Position numbers and translations under genes: made by a program. Below, piece by piece: positions 1 to 6,610 of a DNA stretch of 6,610 bases. The notes beneath the pieces were generated by a model, which did not search any database, was not told where the DNA came from, and saw only the letters and a list, made by a program, of their open reading frames with translations. Source of the DNA: a virus (lineage: Duplodnaviria > Heunggongvirae > Uroviricota > Caudoviricetes); the IMG/VR virus record IMGVR_UViG_2706794697_000006; one strand, given 5' to 3'. The number at the start of each line of letters is the position of its first letter. Positions within the stretch are counted from its first letter, which is position 1.

Positions 1-140
1 CATTGAGATTTTCTACAATCGTCAGCGTCGTCACTCTCGTCTGGGGAATATCTCCCCGGCAGCCTTCAGGGAAAAATATCATCAGATGGCTGCTTAAAAA
101 AAGAACAAATGGTAGTGTCCGCTATTGCCAGTACACCTCA
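1..140 (+). mobile_element. IS3-family insertion sequence, right-end fragment (copy A); body lies left of the window
   Basis: Bases 1-140 are the exact reverse complement of 6471-6610. They contain the 3' end of a transposase ORF and end in ...GCAATAGCGGACACTACC...TCA-type terminus (TG...CA ends typical of IS3 family). The two flanks diverge immediately after base 140 / before 6471. Confidence 0.8.
2..97 (+). CDS. IS3-family transposase (OrfB-type) C-terminal fragment; 5' end outside window
   Basis: Frame starting at base 2 translates to IEIFYNRQRRHSRLGNISPAAFREKYHQMAA then TAA at 95-97. This resembles the conserved C-terminal tail of IS3-family DDE transposases (from memory, not searched). 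Confidence 0.75.
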   Translation: MEIFYNRQRRHSRLGNISPAAFREKYHQMAA

Positions 141-150
141 GGATAGCGGT

Positions 151-194
151 CATGTGATGCCGGTTTCCCGGTAACTCAGCACCGGTATCTGAGT
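151..194. repeat. Stem-loop pair module X1 (hairpin 160-171 plus hairpin 174-194), related to module X2
   Basis: CCGG/CCGG 4-bp stem with TTTC loop (160-171), then ACTCAG/CTGAGT 6-bp stem with a 9-nt loop (174-194), preceded by ATGTGATGC. A second copy of the same architecture lies at 372-418. Confidence 0.5.
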
Positions 195-320
195 CAACGT
201 TTTCTCTACTGGGTCATTTCCGATACGCCCTGCCTGCTGACAGGCTTTCATCACATCTGAAAATATAGCACCCTGACTGATACTGTAGTACCTAAGGTTC
301 CAGAAACTGTGATGTATCCG

Positions 321-347
321 GCACAGAAAAGCCCCTCCGGAGAGGGC
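321..347 (-). terminator. Candidate intrinsic terminator (minus strand)
   Basis: Minus strand reads GCCCUCUCCGGAGGGGC (imperfect GC-rich hairpin, 331-347) followed by UUUUCUGUG (plus-strand A-run 327-330). The stem has one bulge. Confidence 0.35.
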
Positions 348-371
348 TGGAGAGTGGCGCTATGTGCCATT

Positions 372-418
372 GCATGATGCCGGGTGCCTCCCGGTGAATT
401 CAGTACCAGCACCTGAAT
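372..418. repeat. Stem-loop pair module X2, related to X1
   Basis: CCGGG/CCCGG 5-bp stem (380-394), then ATTCAG/CTGAAT 6-bp stem with a 9-nt loop (398-418), preceded by GCATGATGC. Relative to X1 the second stem carries a compensatory C-G to T-A change. Confidence 0.5.
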
Positions 419-544
419 CCGCGATTATCCCATATACCTACTCGCTGATTGCCCCTCCGCACAGGGGGATTCACCATGCCAGTTTCTTTTAACAAACTCC
501 CCGCAAAACAGACAACTGTCAACCGTCTGAATTGTGAGACATTT

Positions 545-570
545 AAAAAAAAGGCCCGCAAAAGCGAGCC
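545..570 (-). terminator. Rho-independent terminator immediately downstream of tRNA-Arg
   Basis: Minus strand: GGCUCGC-UUUU-GCGGGCC hairpin (plus 553-570; 7-bp stem with one G-U pair) followed by eight U (plus-strand A-run 545-552). Confidence 0.7.
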
Positions 571-584
571 AGGGAAAATAAGTG

Positions 585-661
585 TGGCGCGTTGTACTGG
601 ATTCGAACCAGTGACCGATTGCTTAGAAGGCAATTGCTCTGTCCGGCTGAGCTAACAACGC
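585..661 (-). tRNA. tRNA-Arg, anticodon UCU (reads AGA); phage-borne rare-codon tRNA
   Basis: Minus strand folds as a 77-nt cloverleaf: acceptor GCGTTGT/ACAACGC, D-stem GCTC/GAGC, anticodon stem ATTGC/GCAAT with loop CTTCTAA (anticodon TCT), variable loop CGGTC, T-arm ACTGG-TTCGAAT-CCAGT, discriminator G, encoded CCA. Confidence 0.9.
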
Positions 662-674
662 ATGATGCAGATAA

Positions 675-715
675 TGGACCGCCATCGGGGACTTGAACCC
701 CGCGCAGCCAGCTTC
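675..715 (-). tRNA. Partial tRNA, 3' portion only; 5' half including the anticodon lies in the N-run
   Basis: Minus strand shows T-arm CGGGG-TTCAAGT-CCCCG, then 7-nt acceptor strand ATGGCGG, discriminator T and CCA ending at 675. Identity cannot be determined. The implied 5' acceptor strand (CCGCCAT) is unusual, so this is tentative. Confidence 0.45.
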
Positions 716-925
716 NNNNNNNNNNNNNNNNNNNNNNNNNNNNNNNNNNNNNNNNNNNNNNNNNNNNNNNNNNNNNNNNNNNNNNNNNNNNNNNNNNNNN
801 NNNNNNNNNNNNNNNNNNNNNNNNNNNNNNNNNNNNNNNNNNNNNNNNNNNNNNNNNNNNNNNNNNNNNNNNNNNNNNNNNNNNNNNNNNNNNNNNNNNN
901 NNNNNNNNNNNNNNNNNNNNNNNNN
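716..925. other. Run of 210 N (assembly gap or masked sequence)
   Basis: Directly visible in the sequence. It hides the 3' end of the methyltransferase gene and the 5' part of the adjacent tRNA. Confidence 1.
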
Positions 926-1898
926 GCCCGAGCGCCAGTGCCGCTTTCACTGTCGAACCCAACCCCATGAAAAAATCTGCAATCAGGTCACCCGGACGAC
1001 TGCTAGCGCTGATTATCTGCTGCAGCATTTCTGCCGGTTTTTCGCACGGATGTTTCCCGGGATAGAACTGCACCGGTTTATGCGTCCACACATCGGTATA
1101 CGGCACCTGCACCGTCACGCCAAAATACCGCCGCAGATGTTTATATTCACTCAGCAGCTCCGCATACTGCCGGTTCAGTGAGGTATACGTATCCACCAGC
1201 TGGTGGTGGAGCTTTTCCAGTTCACCACGCCGATGCTTCTCTTCTGCCACCCGGGCAAACAGCGCCTGTAATTTCAGATAATCGCTTTCATTCGGCAACT
1301 GCCACTGACCGGCACTGAACCAGTGCGACACCATGTTTTTCTTTCCTGTGGCATCTGCAATCTGTTTTGCCGTTATCCCCAGGGCAGCTCGCGCATCACG
1401 AAAGTAAGAAATCAGCGGGGCCATCACATGCTGTTTCAGTGCACTGCCCTTCGCCGCATACCCGGCATCTTTCGGACGATACGGCCCCTGATAATGTTCC
1501 GCGAACAGAATGCGCTCTGTGGCGGGGAAATACGCCCGCAGGCTTTCCTTGTTGCATCCGTTCCAGCGTCCGGACGGCTTCGCCCAGATAATATGGTTCA
1601 GCACACTGAAGCGTTCACGCATCATGATTTCGATATCAGATGCCAGGCGATGACCACAGAACAGGTAAAGACTTCCGGCAGGTTTCAGCACCCGCCAGAA
1701 CTGCGCCAGACACTGGTCCAGCCACTTCAGGTAATCATCGTCGCCCTTCCACTGGTTATCCCAGCCCTCAGGCTTCACTTTAAAGTACGGCGGGTCCGTG
1801 ACTATCAGGTCAACAGAATTTTCGGGTAACGACCGGATAAATTCCAGGCAGTCGGCGTTGATTAACTCACAACTGGATATTTTTACAGTATTAAGCAT
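926..1898 (-). CDS. DNA methyltransferase (N6-adenine/N4-cytosine, DPPY class), orphan; C-terminus lost in the N-run
   Basis: ATG at 1898. The translation contains IVTDPPY (catalytic motif IV) near the N-terminus and HPCEKP plus DFFMGLGST (AdoMet-binding-type motifs) later. The ORF-track extension through the N-run and over the tRNAs (543-925) is an artifact. No obvious Shine-Dalgarno precedes the ATG. Confidence 0.85.
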
Positions 1899-1992
1899 GG
1901 ATCATTAAGCCTGTCTCTGATAGGCTCATTCTGCTTTTGCGCAAAGCAGTGGGCCTGAGGTTTGCTTGTGAACCCAACGCATGAGCAGATGG

Positions 1993-2019
1993 CTGGTGGG
2001 TGCCCCTAACACCCACCAG
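1993..2019. repeat. Perfect 10-bp inverted repeat CTGGTGGGTG / CACCCACCAG with 7-nt spacer
   Basis: Seen directly at 1993-2002 and 2010-2019. It is not followed by a U-tract on either strand, so it is not a canonical terminator. It lies in the 150-bp non-coding gap upstream of the methylase start. Confidence 0.6.
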
Positions 2020-2034
2020 CCGCCCATTTACCAC

Positions 2035-2062
2035 AAATAAAAAAGCCTTCACTGCGGAAGGC
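2035..2062 (-). terminator. Rho-independent terminator (minus strand) overlapping the stop of the small ORF at 2049-2246
   Basis: Minus strand: GCCUUC-CGCAGU-GAAGGC hairpin (plus 2045-2062) followed by UUUUUUAUUU (plus-strand A-run 2035-2044). Confidence 0.7.
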
Positions 2063-2246
2063 GTCTGTAACAACCGAACTGATAGTCTGCCAGACCCGCC
2101 ATAACCAGCTGGGTCAGTATTAACTGGCAGCGTTCGCGTGAAAGGTAAGTATTCTGCGCTATCTCCCCGACTGTCGCCGGTTCGGTAACGCTTAATTCAT
2201 TAAACACCACTCTGGCGGTTTCTGTCATATCCTGCTGTTTTAGCAT
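2049..2246 (-). CDS. Small hypothetical protein (65 aa), possible winged-helix DNA-binding regulator
   Basis: ATG at 2246 preceded by AAGGA about 6 nt upstream. The segment TVGEIAQNTYLSRERCQLILTQLVMAGL looks like a helix-turn-helix recognition region, and size and composition resemble FaeA/PapI-type small regulators. This assignment is by eye only. Confidence 0.5.
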   Translation of the reverse strand: MLKQQDMTETARVVFNELSVTEPATVGEIAQNTYLSRERCQLILTQLVMAGLADYQFGCYRRLPQ

Positions 2247-2365
2247 GTCTTTTCCTTTTCCGGTTAACGTGACACACCAATAACTCTTGTCGAAAAAGCC
2301 AGCAAGCTGAAAGACAGGTATTCACCGCCACCAGCGCGTTTACTGTACTGACGCGATTTCAGTCA

Positions 2366-2390
2366 TAAAAAACCCGCTCGGCGGCGGGTT
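2366..2390 (-). terminator. tR'-like intrinsic terminator downstream of the late promoter
   Basis: Minus strand: CCCGC-CGCCGA-GCGGG hairpin (plus 2373-2388) followed by UUUUUU (plus-strand A-run 2367-2372). It lies about 50 nt downstream of the predicted PR' start. Confidence 0.7.
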
Positions 2391-2437
2391 GTAGAAACTC
2401 TTCTAACGTCAGGCATAAAACGCCCATCGTTATAACG

Positions 2438-2465
2438 AATTTACCACAGATTCCGGAAAAATCAA
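2438..2465 (-). promoter_or_regulatory. PR'-like late promoter (sigma-70) just downstream of Q; expected site of Q engagement
   Basis: Minus strand TTGATT (-35, plus 2460-2465), 16-nt spacer, TAAATT (-10, plus 2438-2443). TAAATT is the -10 hexamer I recall for lambda PR'. The position between the Q stop and a terminator matches lambdoid late-control architecture. Confidence 0.5.
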
Positions 2466-2470
2466 CCTTG

Positions 2471-3292
2471 TTACCTAGTTACCTTTTTTAACTGCCGCTC
2501 AGCCCATGCTTCTTCAATATCAAACCGGGTCACCAGCGCATCATAAAATTTCTTAACTGTTTTTTCCCATGACGCGCGTGTTATCTGGTTTGTCACCTCG
2601 CATATAGCATTAAATGCCTCCGTTGATGGTAGTCTTTCATAGCCACGACCACCACAACGCTGGCAGTCTCTGATAACAGGCATACCACGTTTTACCGACT
2701 CTTCACGATGAATGGCGACACCACGCCCACGGCAATCCTTACAGGCGGTGGAAACCTCACCCTTTCCGCCACACTCCGGACAGGCAACTTTTACCACCTC
2801 CCTGACTTTTTTCCATTCTTCCCAGTAAGACGGATACACACCTTTCGTACACTTTGCCCATACCGGCGGCTTACCATCCGGATACTGGATCTTGTTTGTA
2901 AAAACCTCGCTTTCAATAAATTTTTTTCCGTGACAGCAGGGGCACTGTTTTTTGCTCGCCGCGCTACGGGCATAATCTTCAAACGCATACGAAGCCATAA
3001 TACGCATCACTGCCGGTTTTATTTCTGCCGGGAGTTTTCTTAACGCCGCCACGCGATCACACCGACTGAGTGCATATTCTGTCAGCAATTCTGTTGCCCG
3101 CTCTCTGTCATTCATACTAATGCCCATTTTCCCAAGGAACGCAGAAACCCCCATCTCAGCCCGATTCTGTGTCATGCCCTGCGCGGCCATCACATCAGTG
3201 ATACTCAGCGCATCTTTCGACGTTGAGGCCGATGCATCAGTCAGGCCGGGGGATTTTGGGGAGTAGTATTTCGGTAAATCTTCCAGTTTCAT
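2471..3292 (-). CDS. Q: Antitermination protein Q, long zinc-finger type (273 aa)
   Basis: The protein carries multiple CxxC motifs (CPCCHGKK, CPECGGKG, CKDCRGRG, CQRCGGRG). It sits immediately upstream of a PR'/tR'-like promoter and terminator and directly downstream of rusA, as in Qin-type prophages. Its start overlaps the rusA stop (ATGA). Confidence 0.75.
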   Translation of the reverse strand: MKLEDLPKYYSPKSPGLTDASASTSKDALSITDVMAAQGMTQNRAEMGVSAFLGKMGISMNDRERATELLTEYALSRCDRVAALRKLPAEIKPAVMRIMASYAFEDYARSAASKKQCPCCHGKKFIESEVFTNKIQYPDGKPPVWAKCTKGVYPSYWEEWKKVREVVKVACPECGGKGEVSTACKDCRGRGVAIHREESVKRGMPVIRDCQRCGGRGYERLPSTEAFNAICEVTNQITRASWEKTVKKFYDALVTRFDIEEAWAERQLKKVTR

Positions 3293-3669
3293 TTTTTGAC
3301 CTGCCCTTCAAGCATTATGGGATAAATCTTCACCCCCAGACGTCCACCAGATACTGGCTGAGCACGAACGATATTGATTTCATCAAACTGCTCATCGTCC
3401 ATTAGCAACCCCGCATGCGTCAGCGCATCCAGCGGCGCTTTCAGAATATTGTCCAGGTCACGGCGGCGCTTATCCGGTGGTTCTGCAATAATTTTTATTG
3501 CCAACCTTCCGGACAGGCTTAATTTCAGCCGCTGCTGGCGAACAATAAGCGCCACTGCCCGGCGATAACGCTCCCCGGCTTTTGATACAAAATATGTGCT
3601 GCCACGACGACGCCAGTAAGTGTTCACCGTCGGCGGGTAAGGTAAAACAAATTCTATGCGCTCGGTCAT
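3289..3669 (-). CDS. rusA: Holliday-junction resolvase RusA
   Basis: 126 aa. The translation contains DKRRRDLDNILKAPLDALTHAGLLMDDEQF and SGGRLGVKI, closely matching the conserved RusA core ([22 protein letters not shown]...DD, GGRLE) recalled from E. coli RusA. Confidence 0.9.
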   Translation of the reverse strand: MTERIEFVLPYPPTVNTYWRRRGSTYFVSKAGERYRRAVALIVRQQRLKLSLSGRLAIKIIAEPPDKRRRDLDNILKAPLDALTHAGLLMDDEQFDEINIVRAQPVSGGRLGVKIYPIMLEGQVKK

Positions 3670-4728
3670 TTATGCTTTCCACTTCAGAACACCCGAATTT
3701 CTCGCGTGCATTAAAAAACGAATCAGCAACAACAGCTGACTGCCGTGTTTCTCTTCAAAATCTTTTACTCCGGCATGTAGTTCGTTACGGCATTTACGGC
3801 ATAACGGAATAACAAACAAATCATCAGCCTTTGTTCCCATCCCTCCCAGTCCATGACCAATGATGTGATGCGGATCATCTGCCTGATTGCCACACGTCAT
3901 GCATTTCTGCGTTTTTACCCAGCGCGTGTATACAGGCATCTCTTCCCGTTGTGATTTCTGGCGCTGGAGATACTGAGCCGGTGACTCCGGATCAACGGCA
4001 ATGCTGACCACCGTCTTTTCCTGTGGTGGGTTCTGTTGCTGGTGGACGTGAGGCAGTAACGCAATATTTTTTGTGCGCTGCTTCAGTATGCTGGTGGCTG
4101 TCTGCTCTCCCGGTATGATGTCGCTTTCACTGTACACAGAGCGAATTTTTTCCGCACGCAACCCCAGCGAACGACGTAATACCGCTTCCGGTAGCGCGTC
4201 CGCCACCTGATTGCGGACCGCCCACCAGGATAATTCAGCCAGAGATAATTCACGCTCCTGCGTACCGCTTATTGCGTGACCGATGACGTCAATCATCCAT
4301 GCTGACAGGTTTTGATGAGCAAGTTGCTCGAGTGATTCGGATGTCTGGTCACGCAGCTGGTTGTCGCAGTGCCAGCACAACACCATTGCGCCGGTACCAT
4401 AACGGTGAATGACGGTTTCGCTGTGATGATAATCGCCGTGTGGCCACTGGCAGGATTTAATATGGCGCAACAGCCAGTCAGACAATGCACCAGCACCACC
4501 AGCAGCACGAATCACCCGTGCGTTACTGAAAAACGGCAGCAATGTTTTGTCTTCCACCAGCGGCTGGCGAGCGGCAGGAACGACCCCGGACGGCAGATTA
4601 CGCATGCTTTTTGGTTCCGGCTCCACCAGTATTCTGCCGTTATGGAATGCTGACATTGATTCACGGCCTGGCTTAACGATAACCAGACCGAGTTCCGGTA
4701 CCAGAACAGGTCGAAGTAATACCCGCAC
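3670..4728 (-). CDS. DUF968-like (YdfU-like) prophage protein with C-terminal HNH/zinc-finger-like motif
   Basis: 352 aa from a GTG at 4728 that has GGAGG 4 nt upstream; an alternative ATG at 4656 would give 328 aa. C-terminal motif CMTCGNQADDPHHIIGHG...CRKCRNELH. Size and position (upstream of rusA and Q) match ydfU of Qin-like prophages. Its stop abuts the rusA start. Confidence 0.7.
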   Translation of the reverse strand: MRVLLRPVLVPELGLVIVKPGRESMSAFHNGRILVEPEPKSMRNLPSGVVPAARQPLVEDKTLLPFFSNARVIRAAGGAGALSDWLLRHIKSCQWPHGDYHHSETVIHRYGTGAMVLCWHCDNQLRDQTSESLEQLAHQNLSAWMIDVIGHAISGTQERELSLAELSWWAVRNQVADALPEAVLRRSLGLRAEKIRSVYSESDIIPGEQTATSILKQRTKNIALLPHVHQQQNPPQEKTVVSIAVDPESPAQYLQRQKSQREEMPVYTRWVKTQKCMTCGNQADDPHHIIGHGLGGMGTKADDLFVIPLCRKCRNELHAGVKDFEEKHGSQLLLLIRFLMHARNSGVLKWKA

Positions 4729-4803
4729 ATTACCTCCAGATCCGTTGCTGGAATGTGCGGGACGGACGCGTTGGCCGTTCGGAGTAAGGGAGCCTGACGG
4801 AGA

Positions 4804-5085
4804 TTATCCAGTGACGGTAGTCGAGGCTAAGGGCTTTTTTAACCTCGCATCCGCGCCTGCGGTAACACTGAATGAGCCATTCGGCCTGTTCTTCAGTGCA
4901 TGGGGGATGCTGGTACCAATCAGATTTAAATGCGTGAGAGCGCCGCCCGTGCCTGCTGGCAAAGACGGCTGAATTATCAGAATTGTGTAGTCTGGAAGGC
5001 AGTGGCTGACAATAGCGCCATTCTCAACGCGCACAGTATAGAGGCCATCTTCACTAAAAATTTCACGTAATTCTTCGATTTTCAT
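4804..5085 (-). CDS. Hypothetical protein (93 aa) at the position occupied by rem in Qin-like prophages
   Basis: ATG at 5085 with GGAAGGA about 9 nt upstream. The ORF track starts it at a TTG one codon earlier. Position between hok and the DUF968 gene corresponds to rem; sequence identity to Rem was not verified. Confidence 0.5.
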   Translation of the reverse strand: MKIEELREIFSEDGLYTVRVENGAIVSHCLPDYTILIIQPSLPAGTGGALTHLNLIGTSIPHALKNRPNGSFSVTAGADARLKKPLASTTVTG

Positions 5086-5206
5086 CAACAGAATCCTTCC
5101 AGATAAATAGCACTCCCCTGTTCGGGGTCCATCCCTCTTCTCCCTGCGCGCTACTTAAGTATTTTTGATTCTATTCCGGCACCATCTAAAACTTCAAACG
5201 CGTTGA

Positions 5207-5236
5207 AAATAAAAACAAAAACCCGCCGAAGCGGGT
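5207..5236 (-). terminator. Rho-independent terminator at the 3' end of the hok mRNA
   Basis: Minus strand: ACCCGC-UUCG-GCGGGU hairpin (plus 5221-5236) followed by UUUUUGUUUUUAUUUU (plus-strand A-rich run 5207-5220). Confidence 0.8.
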
Positions 5237-5305
5237 TAAGTGTGGGTGCATTGAGGATGCCTGCCCCATCAGAGGTGGCGAGGGATTTCTCCCCCGCCTG
5301 GTCTC

Positions 5306-5461
5306 TTACTCCTCAGGTTCGTAAGCTGTGAAGACAGCGACCTCCGTCTGGCCGGTTCGAATTCGTACCTCGCAGAGGTCTTTCCTCGTTACCAGTGCCG
5401 TCACTATGACGGTTAAACAGATGACGATCAGGGCGATTAACATCGCCTTTTGCTGCTTCAT
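5306..5461 (-). CDS. hok: Hok-family type I toxin (51 aa membrane peptide)
   Basis: Translation MKQQKAMLIALIVICLTVIVTALVTRKDLCEVRIRTGQTEVAVFTAYEPEE, which matches HokD/RelF of E. coli as recalled. ATG at 5461 is preceded by GGAGAAGCAGGCT. Confidence 0.9.
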   Translation of the reverse strand: MKQQKAMLIALIVICLTVIVTALVTRKDLCEVRIRTGQTEVAVFTAYEPEE

Positions 5462-5518
5462 AGCCTGCTTCTCCTTGCCTTTCGGCACGTAAGAGGCTAA
5501 CCTAGATTTGCCGTTCAT
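5306..5518 (-). CDS. mok: mok-like reading frame (70 codons), in-frame N-terminal extension of hok
   Basis: ATG at 5518 in the hok frame adds MNGKSRLASYVPKGKEKQA upstream of Hok. The 70-codon length and arrangement match my recollection of mok loci. Confidence 0.55.
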   Translation of the reverse strand: MNGKSRLASYVPKGKEKQAMKQQKAMLIALIVICLTVIVTALVTRKDLCEVRIRTGQTEVAVFTAYEPEE

Positions 5519-5575
5519 AGATTGAGCCTCAGATTAATGTTAAGCGTCTTGCCGGACGCGTAATGTTAACTGGGG
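5510..5575 (+). ncRNA. sok: Candidate sok-like antisense RNA (position inferred, boundaries approximate)
   Basis: Plus strand opposite the mok start. Possible promoter TTGCCT (5475-5480), 17-nt spacer, TAACCT (5498-5503). Possible terminator hairpin GCGTC-TTGCCG-GACGC at 5544-5559 followed by a weak U-rich stretch. No clean terminator, so this is weak. Confidence 0.25.
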
Positions 5576-5612
5576 CTTTTCTCTATCTGCCTTTTGGTGT
5601 TCATGCCTGAGA

Positions 5613-5665
5613 CAGATAGCCTCAAGCACCCGCTGCAATTCTACTTAACTCTCCTTTTCCCGCAA
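5613..5665 (-). promoter_or_regulatory. hok promoter and mRNA 5' end carrying the fold-back partner of the 3' fbi element
   Basis: Minus strand TTGCGG (-35, plus 5660-5665), 16-nt spacer, TAGAAT (-10, plus 5638-5643). The predicted 5' end GCAGCGGGUGCUUGAGGCUAUCUG (plus 5613-5636) is complementary to the mRNA 3' region (plus 5241-5258) with one bulge, and resembles the GCUUGAGGC 5' motif of hok mRNA. Confidence 0.55.
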
Positions 5666-5672
5666 ACCGTTT

Positions 5673-5756
5673 TTATCCCCAGCGGCAAATCGAATACACC
5701 ACCAGCGCCACCGCCATCGCAATTCCTACCGTTGTTAATGCTTCAGGCCAGGTCAT
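5673..5756 (-). CDS. Candidate 27-aa hydrophobic peptide (ORF C), start overlapping the ORF B stop
   Basis: ATG at 5756-5754 overlaps the TGA of ORF B (ATGA). Translation [27 protein letters not shown] has a single predicted transmembrane-like stretch. It is below the ORF-track size cutoff. Only a weak GGA lies upstream. Confidence 0.3.
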
Positions 5757-6097
5757 CGTAAAATATCCTCCACGCTTATCAGTCCGTTCCGCTCCAGATA
5801 ACTCATCGCCTTATCCGGTAATTTGCAGTCTGGCTTCGCTTTCCTCAGTTGCCAGGTTAACTGCTTTACCAGCATGGTTAACTCATCGACCAGACGCTGA
5901 TATCCCACTGGTTTGTATTCATGCAATTTACCGGCTGGCTCTGCTGCCAGCGATACCAGTGCGATTTCCAGAACAGCAATATCCATCTTATATGTGCGGA
6001 TGATGTCATGGTCGATTGTGCCCGGTATGCACAGTCTCTGTGCTTCAATAGTCTCCTCTGCGTGAGCTATTAACTGCTCTCTGGTAAAAGTCGTCAT
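5753..6097 (-). CDS. Hypothetical protein (114 aa, ORF B), paralog of the upstream 55-aa ORF A
   Basis: ATG at 6097 overlaps the TGA of ORF A (ATGA). The N-terminus MTTFTREQ parallels MTTITKER of ORF A, and the internal [10 protein letters not shown]...EY parallels [10 protein letters not shown]...KY. Confidence 0.6.
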
Positions 6098-6261
6098 GCC
6101 GTAGCCCCTTCTTGATATTTTTCAAACCAGAACACAACCGGCTCTGCTTCCAGCGATGCCAGCGCAATCCGTGCCAGTTCCATTTGTTCACCACGGGTAA
6201 GCCCGTTTTCAAGCGGGTTTTTAATGAACAATTCAATACGTTCTTTGGTAATAGTGGTCAT
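6094..6261 (-). CDS. Hypothetical protein (55 aa, ORF A), first gene of a three-ORF coupled cassette
   Basis: ATG at 6261 with GGAG 7 nt upstream. Translation [55 protein letters not shown]. It is below the ORF-track cutoff. Its stop overlaps the ORF B start. Confidence 0.55.
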
Positions 6262-6271
6262 GTGTTACTCC

Positions 6272-6470
6272 TTAACCCGCAGTGCTTTCAACTGATGAGG
6301 GGAACAAAATCTTTTCATCAAACCCTGCATTCATATCATGAACAGCAACACACCAATCCATCGACGAACGATTATCAAGAGCCTCCATGATTTCATCCAT
6401 GCGGCGTAGGTCATACAGGTAAATGCTTTTATCGCCAATGGTGTAAAAGCCAATTTTTTTCGGTGATGGA
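6272..6470 (-). pseudogene. 3' fragment of an unidentified prophage gene truncated by the IS insertion (66 native codons)
   Basis: Open frame ending in TAA at 6272-6274 runs without a start codon up to the IS boundary at 6471. Native translation ...HPSPKKIGFYTIGDKSIYLYDLRRMDEIMEALDNRSSMDWCVAVHDMNAGFDEKILFPSSVESTAG. The frame continues into the IS to an ATG at 6502. Confidence 0.5.
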
Positions 6471-6610
6471 TGAGGTGTACTGGCAATAGCGGACACTACC
6501 ATTTGTTCTTTTTTTAAGCAGCCATCTGATGATATTTTTCCCTGAAGGCTGCCGGGGAGATATTCCCCAGACGAGAGTGACGACGCTGACGATTGTAGAA
6601 AATCTCAATG
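6471..6610 (-). mobile_element. IS3-family insertion sequence, right-end fragment (copy B, inverted); body lies right of the window
   Basis: Exact reverse complement of 1-140. The terminus faces into the window. Confidence 0.8.
6514..6609 (-). CDS. IS3-family transposase C-terminal fragment (copy B); 5' end outside window
   Basis: Mirror image of the 2-97 fragment, with the same translation ...EIFYNRQRRHSRLGNISPAAFREKYHQMAA. Confidence 0.75.
   Translation of the reverse strand: MEIFYNRQRRHSRLGNISPAAFREKYHQMAA

Follow-up and report, generated by a model that had tools for sequence, protein, structure and literature searches.

The 6,610-nucleotide stretch that we analysed (the window) is very probably a draft contig or scaffold, bounded by repeats, of a genome of the Shigella sonnei type, holding part of a defective lambdoid prophage located by ompW and ending on both sides in IS600 copies that the assembly left unresolved and that have separate histories. 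Such an IS600-bounded prophage remnant is an ordinary and well-documented feature of Shigella genomes; it belongs to a known kind of structure and is not a new mobile unit. The window is organised as follows.

1 to 140, plus strand: right end (positions 1125-1264) of IS600 copy B, with the end of OrfB at 2-98; the copy is cut at the window edge
141 to 143, no strand: GGA, inner triplet of copy B's target-site duplication; the outer triplet, on the far side of the IS, is not part of the window
319 to 508, minus strand: sRNA that matches Rfam STnc100 at 123.6 bits against a gathering score of 47; terminator-like hairpin at 330-348
585 to 661, minus strand: tRNA-Arg (TCT)
675 to 925, minus strand: start of a tRNA-Arg (TCG), then 210 N (716-925)
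926 to 1898, minus strand: N6/N4 DNA methyltransferase (PF01555), 352 aa in relatives, 3' end hidden by the N run
2471 to 3292, minus strand: late antiterminator Q (PF03589), 273 aa, intact, with a terminator-like hairpin downstream at 2371-2390
3289 to 3669, minus strand: RusA Holliday-junction resolvase (PF05866), 126 aa, intact
3670 to 4728, minus strand: DUF968 / NinG-like protein (PF06147), 352 aa, intact
4804 to 5088, minus strand: 94-aa ORF across a 250-bp deletion, breakpoint 4997/4998
5306 to 5631, minus strand: hok/sok type I toxin-antitoxin (PF01848), Hok ORF 5306-5518, sok RNA 5456-5631
5753 to 6261, minus strand: two small nin-region ORFs, 114 aa and 55 aa
6272 to 6470, minus strand: 3' three-quarters (~65 codons) of an 87-codon gene cut by copy A; GGA at 6468-6470 is the insertion-point triplet
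6471 to 6610, minus strand: right end (positions 1125-1264) of IS600 copy A; the copy is cut at the window edge

The two ends of the window had been described in a first-pass annotation as perfect reverse complements, and a repeat search of the window returned precisely this: two arms of 140 nt (1-140 and 6471-6610), 100% complementary and 6330 nt apart. It is effectively impossible that such a match arose by chance. Each arm is the last 140 nt of IS600, at the IRR end of the 1264-bp element as rebuilt from locus L005, and is identical over 140/140 nt to the elements annotated in RefSeq as "IS3-like element IS600 family transposase", which occur in thousands of records. The left arm ends in ...ACCTCA at position 140, which is the IRR tip. 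The translation of 2-98 is the C-terminus of OrfB, IEIFYNRQRRHSRLGNISPAAFREKYHQMAA followed by the stop (the last 31 codons), so both transposase genes point inward. The initial reading of the ends as inward-facing right ends of an IS3-family element carrying the 3' end of the transposase gene agrees with the IS600 identity and with this C-terminus. The inner flanks are unlike (GGATAGCGG... on the left, ...GGTGATGGA on the right), as was already noted when two separate junctions were proposed.

The window itself carries just these last 31 OrfB codons, and the features of the full element were read from other loci. The tips of IS600 are TG...CA, and its terminal inverted repeats are imperfect, as in the IS3 family (IRL = TGAGGTAGCCTG..., IRR = TGAGGTGTACTG...); they have their first 6 nt in common, plus a conserved GGACACT block. 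Full copies carry orfA (100 aa) and orfB (272 aa) with an A7G frameshift motif (AAAAAAAG, IS position 316), a fused 385-aa product is called, and the Pfam domains are HTH_Tnp_1, HTH_21, rve and rve_3. These are the two overlapping ORFs, the programmed -1 frameshift, the HTH and the DDE (rve) domain of the family.

The length of the arms, 140 nt, is set by the window edges. Copies A and B are both full length in complete genomes (1.26 kb each, >99.8% identical). A true divergence of the copies at 140 nt was considered and rejected, since they are identical over 284 nt from the IRR tip and the first difference comes at 285 nt, which is IS position 980. Other draft contigs of the locus stop 107, 72, 61, 51, 47 or 37 nt into IS600. 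Both ends of the window run 140 nt into a repeat that the assembler failed to resolve. One could also imagine that assembly alone created the inverted ends, in a chimeric or folded-back contig, and that one junction has no second IS600: the arms are equal in length and end exactly at both window edges, and the internal run of 210 N does not match the 245 bp present in all relatives. This is hardly credible, however, as both junctions, with the full 1264-bp IS600, are found in many independent complete chromosomes and IMG/VR contigs. The artefact is confined to the arm length. The collapsed repeat that the first-pass annotation had raised as an objection to its own reading is thus real as far as the 140-nt ends are concerned, which are a contig boundary in such a repeat, but both copies of the IS exist.

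Between the arms, 6.3 kb hold nin-region ORFs, hok/sok, DUF968, RusA, Q, a DNA methyltransferase, three tRNAs and an sRNA. The suggestion that this is prophage DNA is borne out by the genes that RefSeq annotates in locus L001, where the matching region is 97% identical, by the Pfam domains and by phage matches. The interior has the nin region, the Q gene, the late-operon order and the phage homology of a lambdoid prophage. The int, immunity and replication genes of a complete or inducible prophage are missing, int being reduced to its last 319 bp, and no gene is called between DUF977 and int in the S. sonnei chromosomes. As the early region is absent, the prophage is defective, and with this loss Q, the methyltransferase gene and the tRNA genes, though intact, are cut off from their native early promoter. 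A scan for sigma-70 promoters returned fewer sites than in shuffled controls, and none at the junctions. The stretch masked by the N run is 245 bp long in all relatives, where it comprises the rest of the tRNA-Arg, a tRNA with a CAT anticodon, which RefSeq lists as tRNA-Ile, and the methyltransferase gene's 3' end. The 250-bp deletion is defined relative to S. sonnei genomes without copy B, which carry a Rem-family gene at that place.

Both junctions were found in complete S. sonnei chromosomes, and they occur together on one IMG/VR contig (L005). Neither was found in the complete E. coli genomes, in all of which the match to prophage DNA breaks off precisely at 140/141 and 6470/6471. The index of a public assembly collection records the junction ORF in 795 blocks; the 10 places listed are complete or near-complete chromosomes, and two of these 10 are named S. 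sonnei in papers. The window differs from locus L015 by 2 SNPs in 5685 nt. It can probably be assigned to S. sonnei on this near-identity to chromosomes, two of them confirmed by name. An exact-match scan of genome and metagenome contig collections with both junction 40-mers gave no match; the genomic context came from viral contigs and from a protein look-up. Two arrangements are seen beyond the copies, a common one (L015-type) and a rearranged one (L023/L005-type), in the lineage of which copy A has recombined with a third IS600; the outer flanks that tell the two apart are not part of the window.

The left junction is that of a clean insertion. Copy B is present at its full 1264 bp in loci L015, L017-L020 and L022-L024, where the filled site reads ...CGCTATCC-IS600-TCCTTCCAGG, versus an empty site ...CGCTATCCTTCCAGG in other S. 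sonnei (loci L016, L021 and L010). The target-site duplication is perfect and 3 bp long, as in the IS3 family (GGA/GGA in the window orientation, that is TCC/TCC), and the spacing from the methyltransferase to SASA differs between filled and empty sites by 1267 bp, which is 1264 + 3. It had been proposed that this junction truncates the region after the tRNAs; instead, copy B sits in an intergenic stretch, with the tRNA/sRNA module on one side and the nanS-p and lysis genes on the other, and nanS-p (SASA esterase) and the holin gene come directly next, intact. The comparison with an uninterrupted related prophage, which had been suggested as a check, found the outer flank of copy B to be collinear with that prophage (L001). 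Copy B would be the younger of the two copies; it came in by plain transposition with a 3-bp GGA duplication and is oriented against late transcription. In locus L002, the IRL flank of copy B is foreign. Independent insertions into a hotspot were considered for the left junction shared by L002 and L003, and rejected: mismatches to these loci start only at window position 508, which suggests a prophage that is mosaic downstream.

At the right junction, copy A splits an 87-codon hypothetical gene and has no target-site duplication, its inner flank being GGA and its outer one AAA (CTA in L005 and L023). The gene at 6471 had rightly been called truncated: about 65 codons are kept, and they now belong to a 76-aa fusion ORF whose start, at 6502, is in IS600. 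The remainder of the gene, including GGA (L001 12172-12243), is inverted and lies ~2.2 kb further out, where it is joined exactly at GGA to the last 319 bp of a phage int, beside ompW. This int remnant corresponds to the final 319 bp of int in an O157:H7 prophage that also adjoins ompW. The right side is a rearrangement junction, as anticipated, with GGA facing AAA and the other part of the gene displaced and inverted. The far junction between the gene part and int is present in 8 of the 10 chromosomes, including ones without copy B, and the early region carried by related prophages between these points is absent. Of the two situations set against its own reading by the first-pass annotation, the second was that both copies have their own duplication and undisturbed flanks, which holds for copy B but does not for copy A.

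The comparisons show the IS identity, the two full copies, the duplication and empty sites of B, the missing duplication of A, the displaced inverted half of the gene and the collinearity; the order of events and the molecular route given next are proposals. Copy A would be the older copy, inserted into the 87-codon nin-region gene, and its lack of a duplication would result from a later rearrangement. This event would have cut exactly at the IRL tip of copy A, leading to the inversion of ~2.2 kb of adjoining DNA (which includes a later IS1), and the same event would have deleted what lay between DUF977 and the remaining 319 bp of int, a region which carries replication, immunity and recombination genes in related prophages. 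An IS is present at one only of the two new joints of this inversion-deletion: one joint lies exactly at the IRL tip, and the other, exactly at the GGA triplet, is fused to int without any IS. Conceivably, though this is doubtful, the 2.2-kb inversion and the loss of the early region were a single aberrant transposase event at one IS end and not homologous recombination between two IS. In that case, the 3'-OH of the IRL would attack the opposite strand within DUF977, and the freed flank would then be joined illegitimately. To our knowledge, one-step inversion-deletions have rarely been documented for copy-out/paste-in elements of the IS3 family. A two-IS inversion followed by IS loss could have left a short piece of IS600 at the far (int) junction, where only chance matches of 9-11 nt were found; the search for an intermediate form of the rearrangement found none, and there is no second IS600 at the far junction.

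Two full-length, near-identical IS600 copies in inverted orientation have the geometry of a composite transposon, and the window had indeed been likened to one. Yet the outer flanks in L015-type chromosomes are GGA on the left and AAA on the right, so there is no shared 3-bp duplication around the 8.9-kb unit, and copy B has its own duplication as well as empty-site alleles, which means that it arrived alone. The junction loci all correspond to the same ompW prophage or to its IS-recombined derivatives, with secondary swaps of the outer flanks, so that no second, unrelated site is known for the unit among them, and the complete E. coli genomes lack both of its junctions. A plasmid search with the interior turned up related prophage DNA, with a best match of 94% identity that is not flanked by IS600, and thus offers no support for the mobility of the unit. 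It is almost certainly not the case that the two copies and the 6.3 kb move as one through their outer IRL ends, and the likeness to a composite unit does not survive the differing outer flanks and the single prophage background.

Homologous recombination between the inverted copies could also have flipped the 6.3-kb segment, either in the isolate from which the window came or as a switching isomer. With a length of 1.26 kb and >99.8% identity, such inverted repeats are good substrates for recombination, the recombined copy A of L023/L005 and the foreign IRL flank of copy B in L002 point to exchanges at this locus, and a repeat-bounded contig looks identical for either isomer. Nevertheless, in all complete chromosomes with both copies (8/8), the IRL flanks are in their un-inverted combinations (CCCTTTAATTTT for A, or TAAGCTGATTAG in L023, and TCCTTCCAGGCC for B) and the segment is collinear with the lysis genes on one side and the int/ompW end on the other, and SNPs at IS positions 126 and 980 still tell the two copies apart in most genomes. 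Neither a reversal nor exchanged triplets were seen in complete chromosomes, copy B keeping both of its own, and we regard such a flip as very unlikely. An IS-mediated inversion or deletion of the prophage had been envisaged; an inversion and a deletion do exist beyond the right copy, outside the window, but the 6.3-kb segment itself is un-inverted.

The locus adds to the known cases of cryptic S. sonnei prophages broken up by IS600, and it leaves the current view of IS and prophage biology unchanged. It carries a caution for the reading of draft contigs: a perfect terminal inverted repeat whose arms end exactly at both contig edges is the mark of a unique segment between two copies of a collapsed repeat, and the arm length of such repeats is a product of the assembler and not biology. 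Whether a genome carries copy B, taken together with the 250-bp deletion linked to it, could mark its lineage.

Compared with known systems, the likeness to the composite transposons Tn10 and Tn5 is geometric only, an inverted pair of one IS around DNA; unlike them, the locus has no duplication around the unit, one IS with its own duplication and a single genomic context. The order DUF968-RusA-Q-methyltransferase-tRNAs-nanS-p-holin is common in Stx and related phages and in E. coli prophages, at 90-97% nucleotide identity. With respect to the Q-tRNA-(stx)-nanS-p-lysis module of Stx phages, the locus has neither stx nor other cargo, IS600 occupying that place, and its early region is gone. As in the lambdoid prophage of O157:H7 at ompW, the int remnant adjoins ompW. 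The IS itself is the IS600 of Shigella (IS3 family, IS3 group), with the same 140-nt identity, 1264 bp, TG...CA tips, A7G motif, HTH and rve domains and the 3-bp duplication at B; the element itself shows no difference, and copy A is without duplication. IS600 is among the five IS that have expanded throughout Shigella (Hawkey et al. 2020 PMC7373316; S. sonnei reference set PMC12795559). Shigella chromosomes each contain hundreds of IS copies, which lead to fragmented short-read assemblies, gene disruption, deletions and, in S. sonnei, IS-flanked inversions (Hawkey et al. 2020 PMC7373316; PMC12795559). We found no description of this particular locus in that Shigella IS literature (PMC7373316; PMC12795559). 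With the IS-driven decay of Shigella prophages it shares an insertion, an adjacent inversion-deletion and flank swaps between IS600 copies, and it differs in that an IS is found at one of the two joints of the inversion-deletion.

The window is a piece of draft assembly from a cryptic Shigella sonnei prophage, riddled with IS600, that is present in many public genomes. Its extremities form a perfect inverted repeat of 140 nt (1-140 and 6471-6610, separated by 6330 nt in the repeat search). Each arm is the right end of IS600 (RefSeq label 'IS3-like element IS600 family transposase') and is found at 99% identity or more in over 3000 E. coli records. The first-pass annotation had both transposase genes reading into the segment, and this is confirmed, since positions 2-98 translate into the OrfB C-terminus (...YNRQRRHSRLGNISPAAFREKYHQMAA, then the stop) and the IS600 tip ...ACCTCA terminates at base 140; the inner flanks of the two arms are indeed unlike each other. 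Rebuilt from L005, an IMG/VR contig with both junctions, the full IS600 measures 1264 bp (tips TGAGGT.../...ACCTCA) and contains orfA (100 aa), orfB (272 aa) and a slippery run, AAAAAAAG, at position 316.

Between the arms, positions 141-6470 are lambdoid prophage DNA in which every gene lies on the minus strand:

minus strand, 87-codon gene, 3' three-quarters
minus strand, 55-aa ORF and 114-aa ORF
minus strand, hok/sok
4804-5088, minus strand, 94-aa ORF
minus strand, DUF968 (352 aa)
minus strand, RusA (126 aa)
minus strand, antiterminator Q (273 aa)
minus strand, 65-aa ORF
minus strand, N6/N4 DNA methyltransferase
minus strand, tRNAs
319-508, minus strand, STnc100-family sRNA (strong Rfam match, 123.6 bits; gathering score 47)

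This segment is 95-97% identical to prophages of many complete E. coli genomes, and every one of these alignments ends precisely at 140/141 and 6470/6471. Situated between the tRNAs and the left IS600, the sRNA comes with a terminator-like hairpin of its own (330-348). A 250-bp deletion at 4997/4998, relative to L010, L016, L021, L009 and L013 (related prophage loci), cuts away a portion of a Rem-family gene and gives rise to the 94-aa ORF. Its breakpoints show no evident direct repeat, and in the loci examined it occurs together with the left IS600 copy.

The left copy arrived by simple transposition, which duplicated 3 bp (GGA, in the window orientation). In chromosomes of the L015 type, S. 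sonnei-like and complete or nearly so, the filled site reads ...CGCTATCC, IS600, TCCTTCCAGG..., while the empty site of L016, L021 and L010 reads ...CGCTATCCTTCCAGG...; the spacing from the methyltransferase to the SASA gene differs between the two by 1267 bp, that is 1264 + 3. The site is intergenic and downstream of the sRNA terminator, no sequence was lost, and the outer flank runs on collinearly, as in the uninterrupted related prophage L001, into nanS-p (534 bp away, encoding a SASA esterase) and the holin gene. About 180 nt separate the sRNA from the insertion point downstream. In Stx phages, stx sits at the equivalent position, whereas the S. sonnei prophage has no cargo there. The left junction was also seen in two other loci, L002 (3087-4350) and L003 (999-1547), but with different downstream sequence; their mismatches to the window start at 508, and L003 has about 2.2 kb of extra DNA before the methyltransferase.

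The right copy has a different history. Its inner flank (...GGTGATGGA) is unlike its outer flank (AAAATTAAAGGG... in eight chromosomes, CTAATCAGC... in chromosome L023 and in L005), so there is no target-site duplication. In the uninterrupted prophage, the 87-codon gene runs on as GGA followed by CAGCGATCAAG...; in S. sonnei this continuation (L001 12172-12243, GGA included) is inverted and sits 2.2 kb further out than the right copy. The outer end (IRL) of that copy is directly abutted by the DUF977 gene, likewise inverted. At the far joint, ...GCTGTCC is followed by TGTGGTGTCATCC..., the displaced gene part being fused, through the GGA/TCC triplet, to a match of the last 319 bp of a prophage int, which corresponds to the integrase 3' end adjoining ompW in O157:H7. 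The inverted piece (L015 6526-8768) comprises the gene 5' part, DUF4014, a 70-aa ORF, a later IS1 and DUF977; from DUF977 to the int 3' end, all the intervening DNA is missing. In L015, the IS1-bounded insert measures 1188 bp between located IS1-type ends and has near-identical 9-bp flanks (CAGCACTGT and CGGCACTGT).

The far joint is present in 8 of the 10 chromosomes and missing from L020. As both chromosomes devoid of the left copy carry it, the event at the right copy is older than the left insertion. Each of the two new joints coincides exactly with a position set by the IS600 tip (the IRL itself in one case, the duplication triplet in the other), which points to an IS600 end as the probable breakpoint. 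Either a one-ended transposase event or recombination with a second copy and subsequent loss of an IS would explain the rearrangement; at the far joint, no remnant of IS600 could be detected. Of the deletion initially envisaged for the prophage, nothing is found at the left junction, while a deletion with a small inversion did occur on the outer side of the right copy, beyond the window.

The composite transposon that had also been proposed is rejected, and the proposed inversion is unlikely. The outer triplets differ (GGA and AAA), the left copy shows a separate duplication as well as empty-site alleles, and only one background was found to carry the unit. The 6.3-kb segment keeps its normal orientation relative to int/ompW and the lysis genes, and its inversion was seen in none of the eight chromosomes with both copies; as the window includes no outer flanks, inversion in the source isolate itself is judged improbable, not rejected.

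The exact junction 40-mers had no match in genome_contigs or metagenome_contigs, and were found in IMG/VR contigs, both on L005. The assembly collection indexes, in 795 blocks, a 76-aa ORF that runs through the right junction; the ten places displayed are complete or near-complete chromosomes. Two junction-bearing chromosomes are S. sonnei UKMCC1015 (CP060117) and 2015C-3566 (CP022457), and over 5685 nt there are 2 substitutions between L015 and the window, so that on sequence grounds S. sonnei, or a very close relative, is the most probable source of the window. The right junction is present twice in the IMG/VR scaffold L013 (3846-3885 and 6935-6974, the second at the scaffold end), through either duplication or a scaffolding artefact.

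An assembly artefact accounts for the equal length of the arms, which are 140 nt merely because the window ends there, but not for the two IS600 copies, which are real and full length at the locus in complete chromosomes. There, they differ only at IS positions 126, 551 or 980, the difference nearest to the IRR tip being 285 nt away. Draft contigs of the locus stop 107 (L007, both ends), 72, 61, 51, 47 or 37 nt inside IS600. Moreover, positions 716-925 are a run of 210 N, for a stretch of 245 bp in every relative examined (remainder of tRNA-Arg(TCG), a CAT-anticodon tRNA annotated as tRNA-Ile, and the methyltransferase 3' end); not being length-preserving, this run represents either a gap in the scaffold or inexact masking. 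Together, these full-length copies, varied stops and N run show that the window is a draft contig or scaffold bounded by repeats. A de Bruijn-graph contig reaches about k-1 bases into a repeat, and the arm length presumably matches this (140 = 141-1). The L015 copies (8769-10032 and 16398-17661) share the variants 126T and 551A, by which the copies are told apart in other strains, perhaps through gene conversion between them or as an effect of assembly polishing.

Other IS-linked changes were observed around the locus. In L023 (8170-8781) and L005 (8619-10847), the IRL flank of the right copy consists of a truncated gene from another phage-like element, whose E. coli counterpart lies in the yecD-yecN region and splits a DUF72 gene; this flank would imply a large IS600-by-IS600 chromosomal rearrangement. 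The left IS600 of L002 reaches only 98.5% identity, and its IRL flank (CTCCCGTAAAGA) is foreign. Both flanks, and the absence of the far joint from L020, fit recombination among the many IS copies of these genomes, as known from the literature.

The first observation was accurate. What is mildly unusual is solely the inversion-deletion beyond the right copy, precise to the IS600 tip. The structure is otherwise ordinary and of an already known kind. IS600 belongs to the five IS that have expanded in all Shigella, whose reference chromosomes carry 229-348 IS insertions each (PMC7373316), and S. sonnei shows fragmented assemblies and lineage-specific IS-flanked inversions (PMC12795559).
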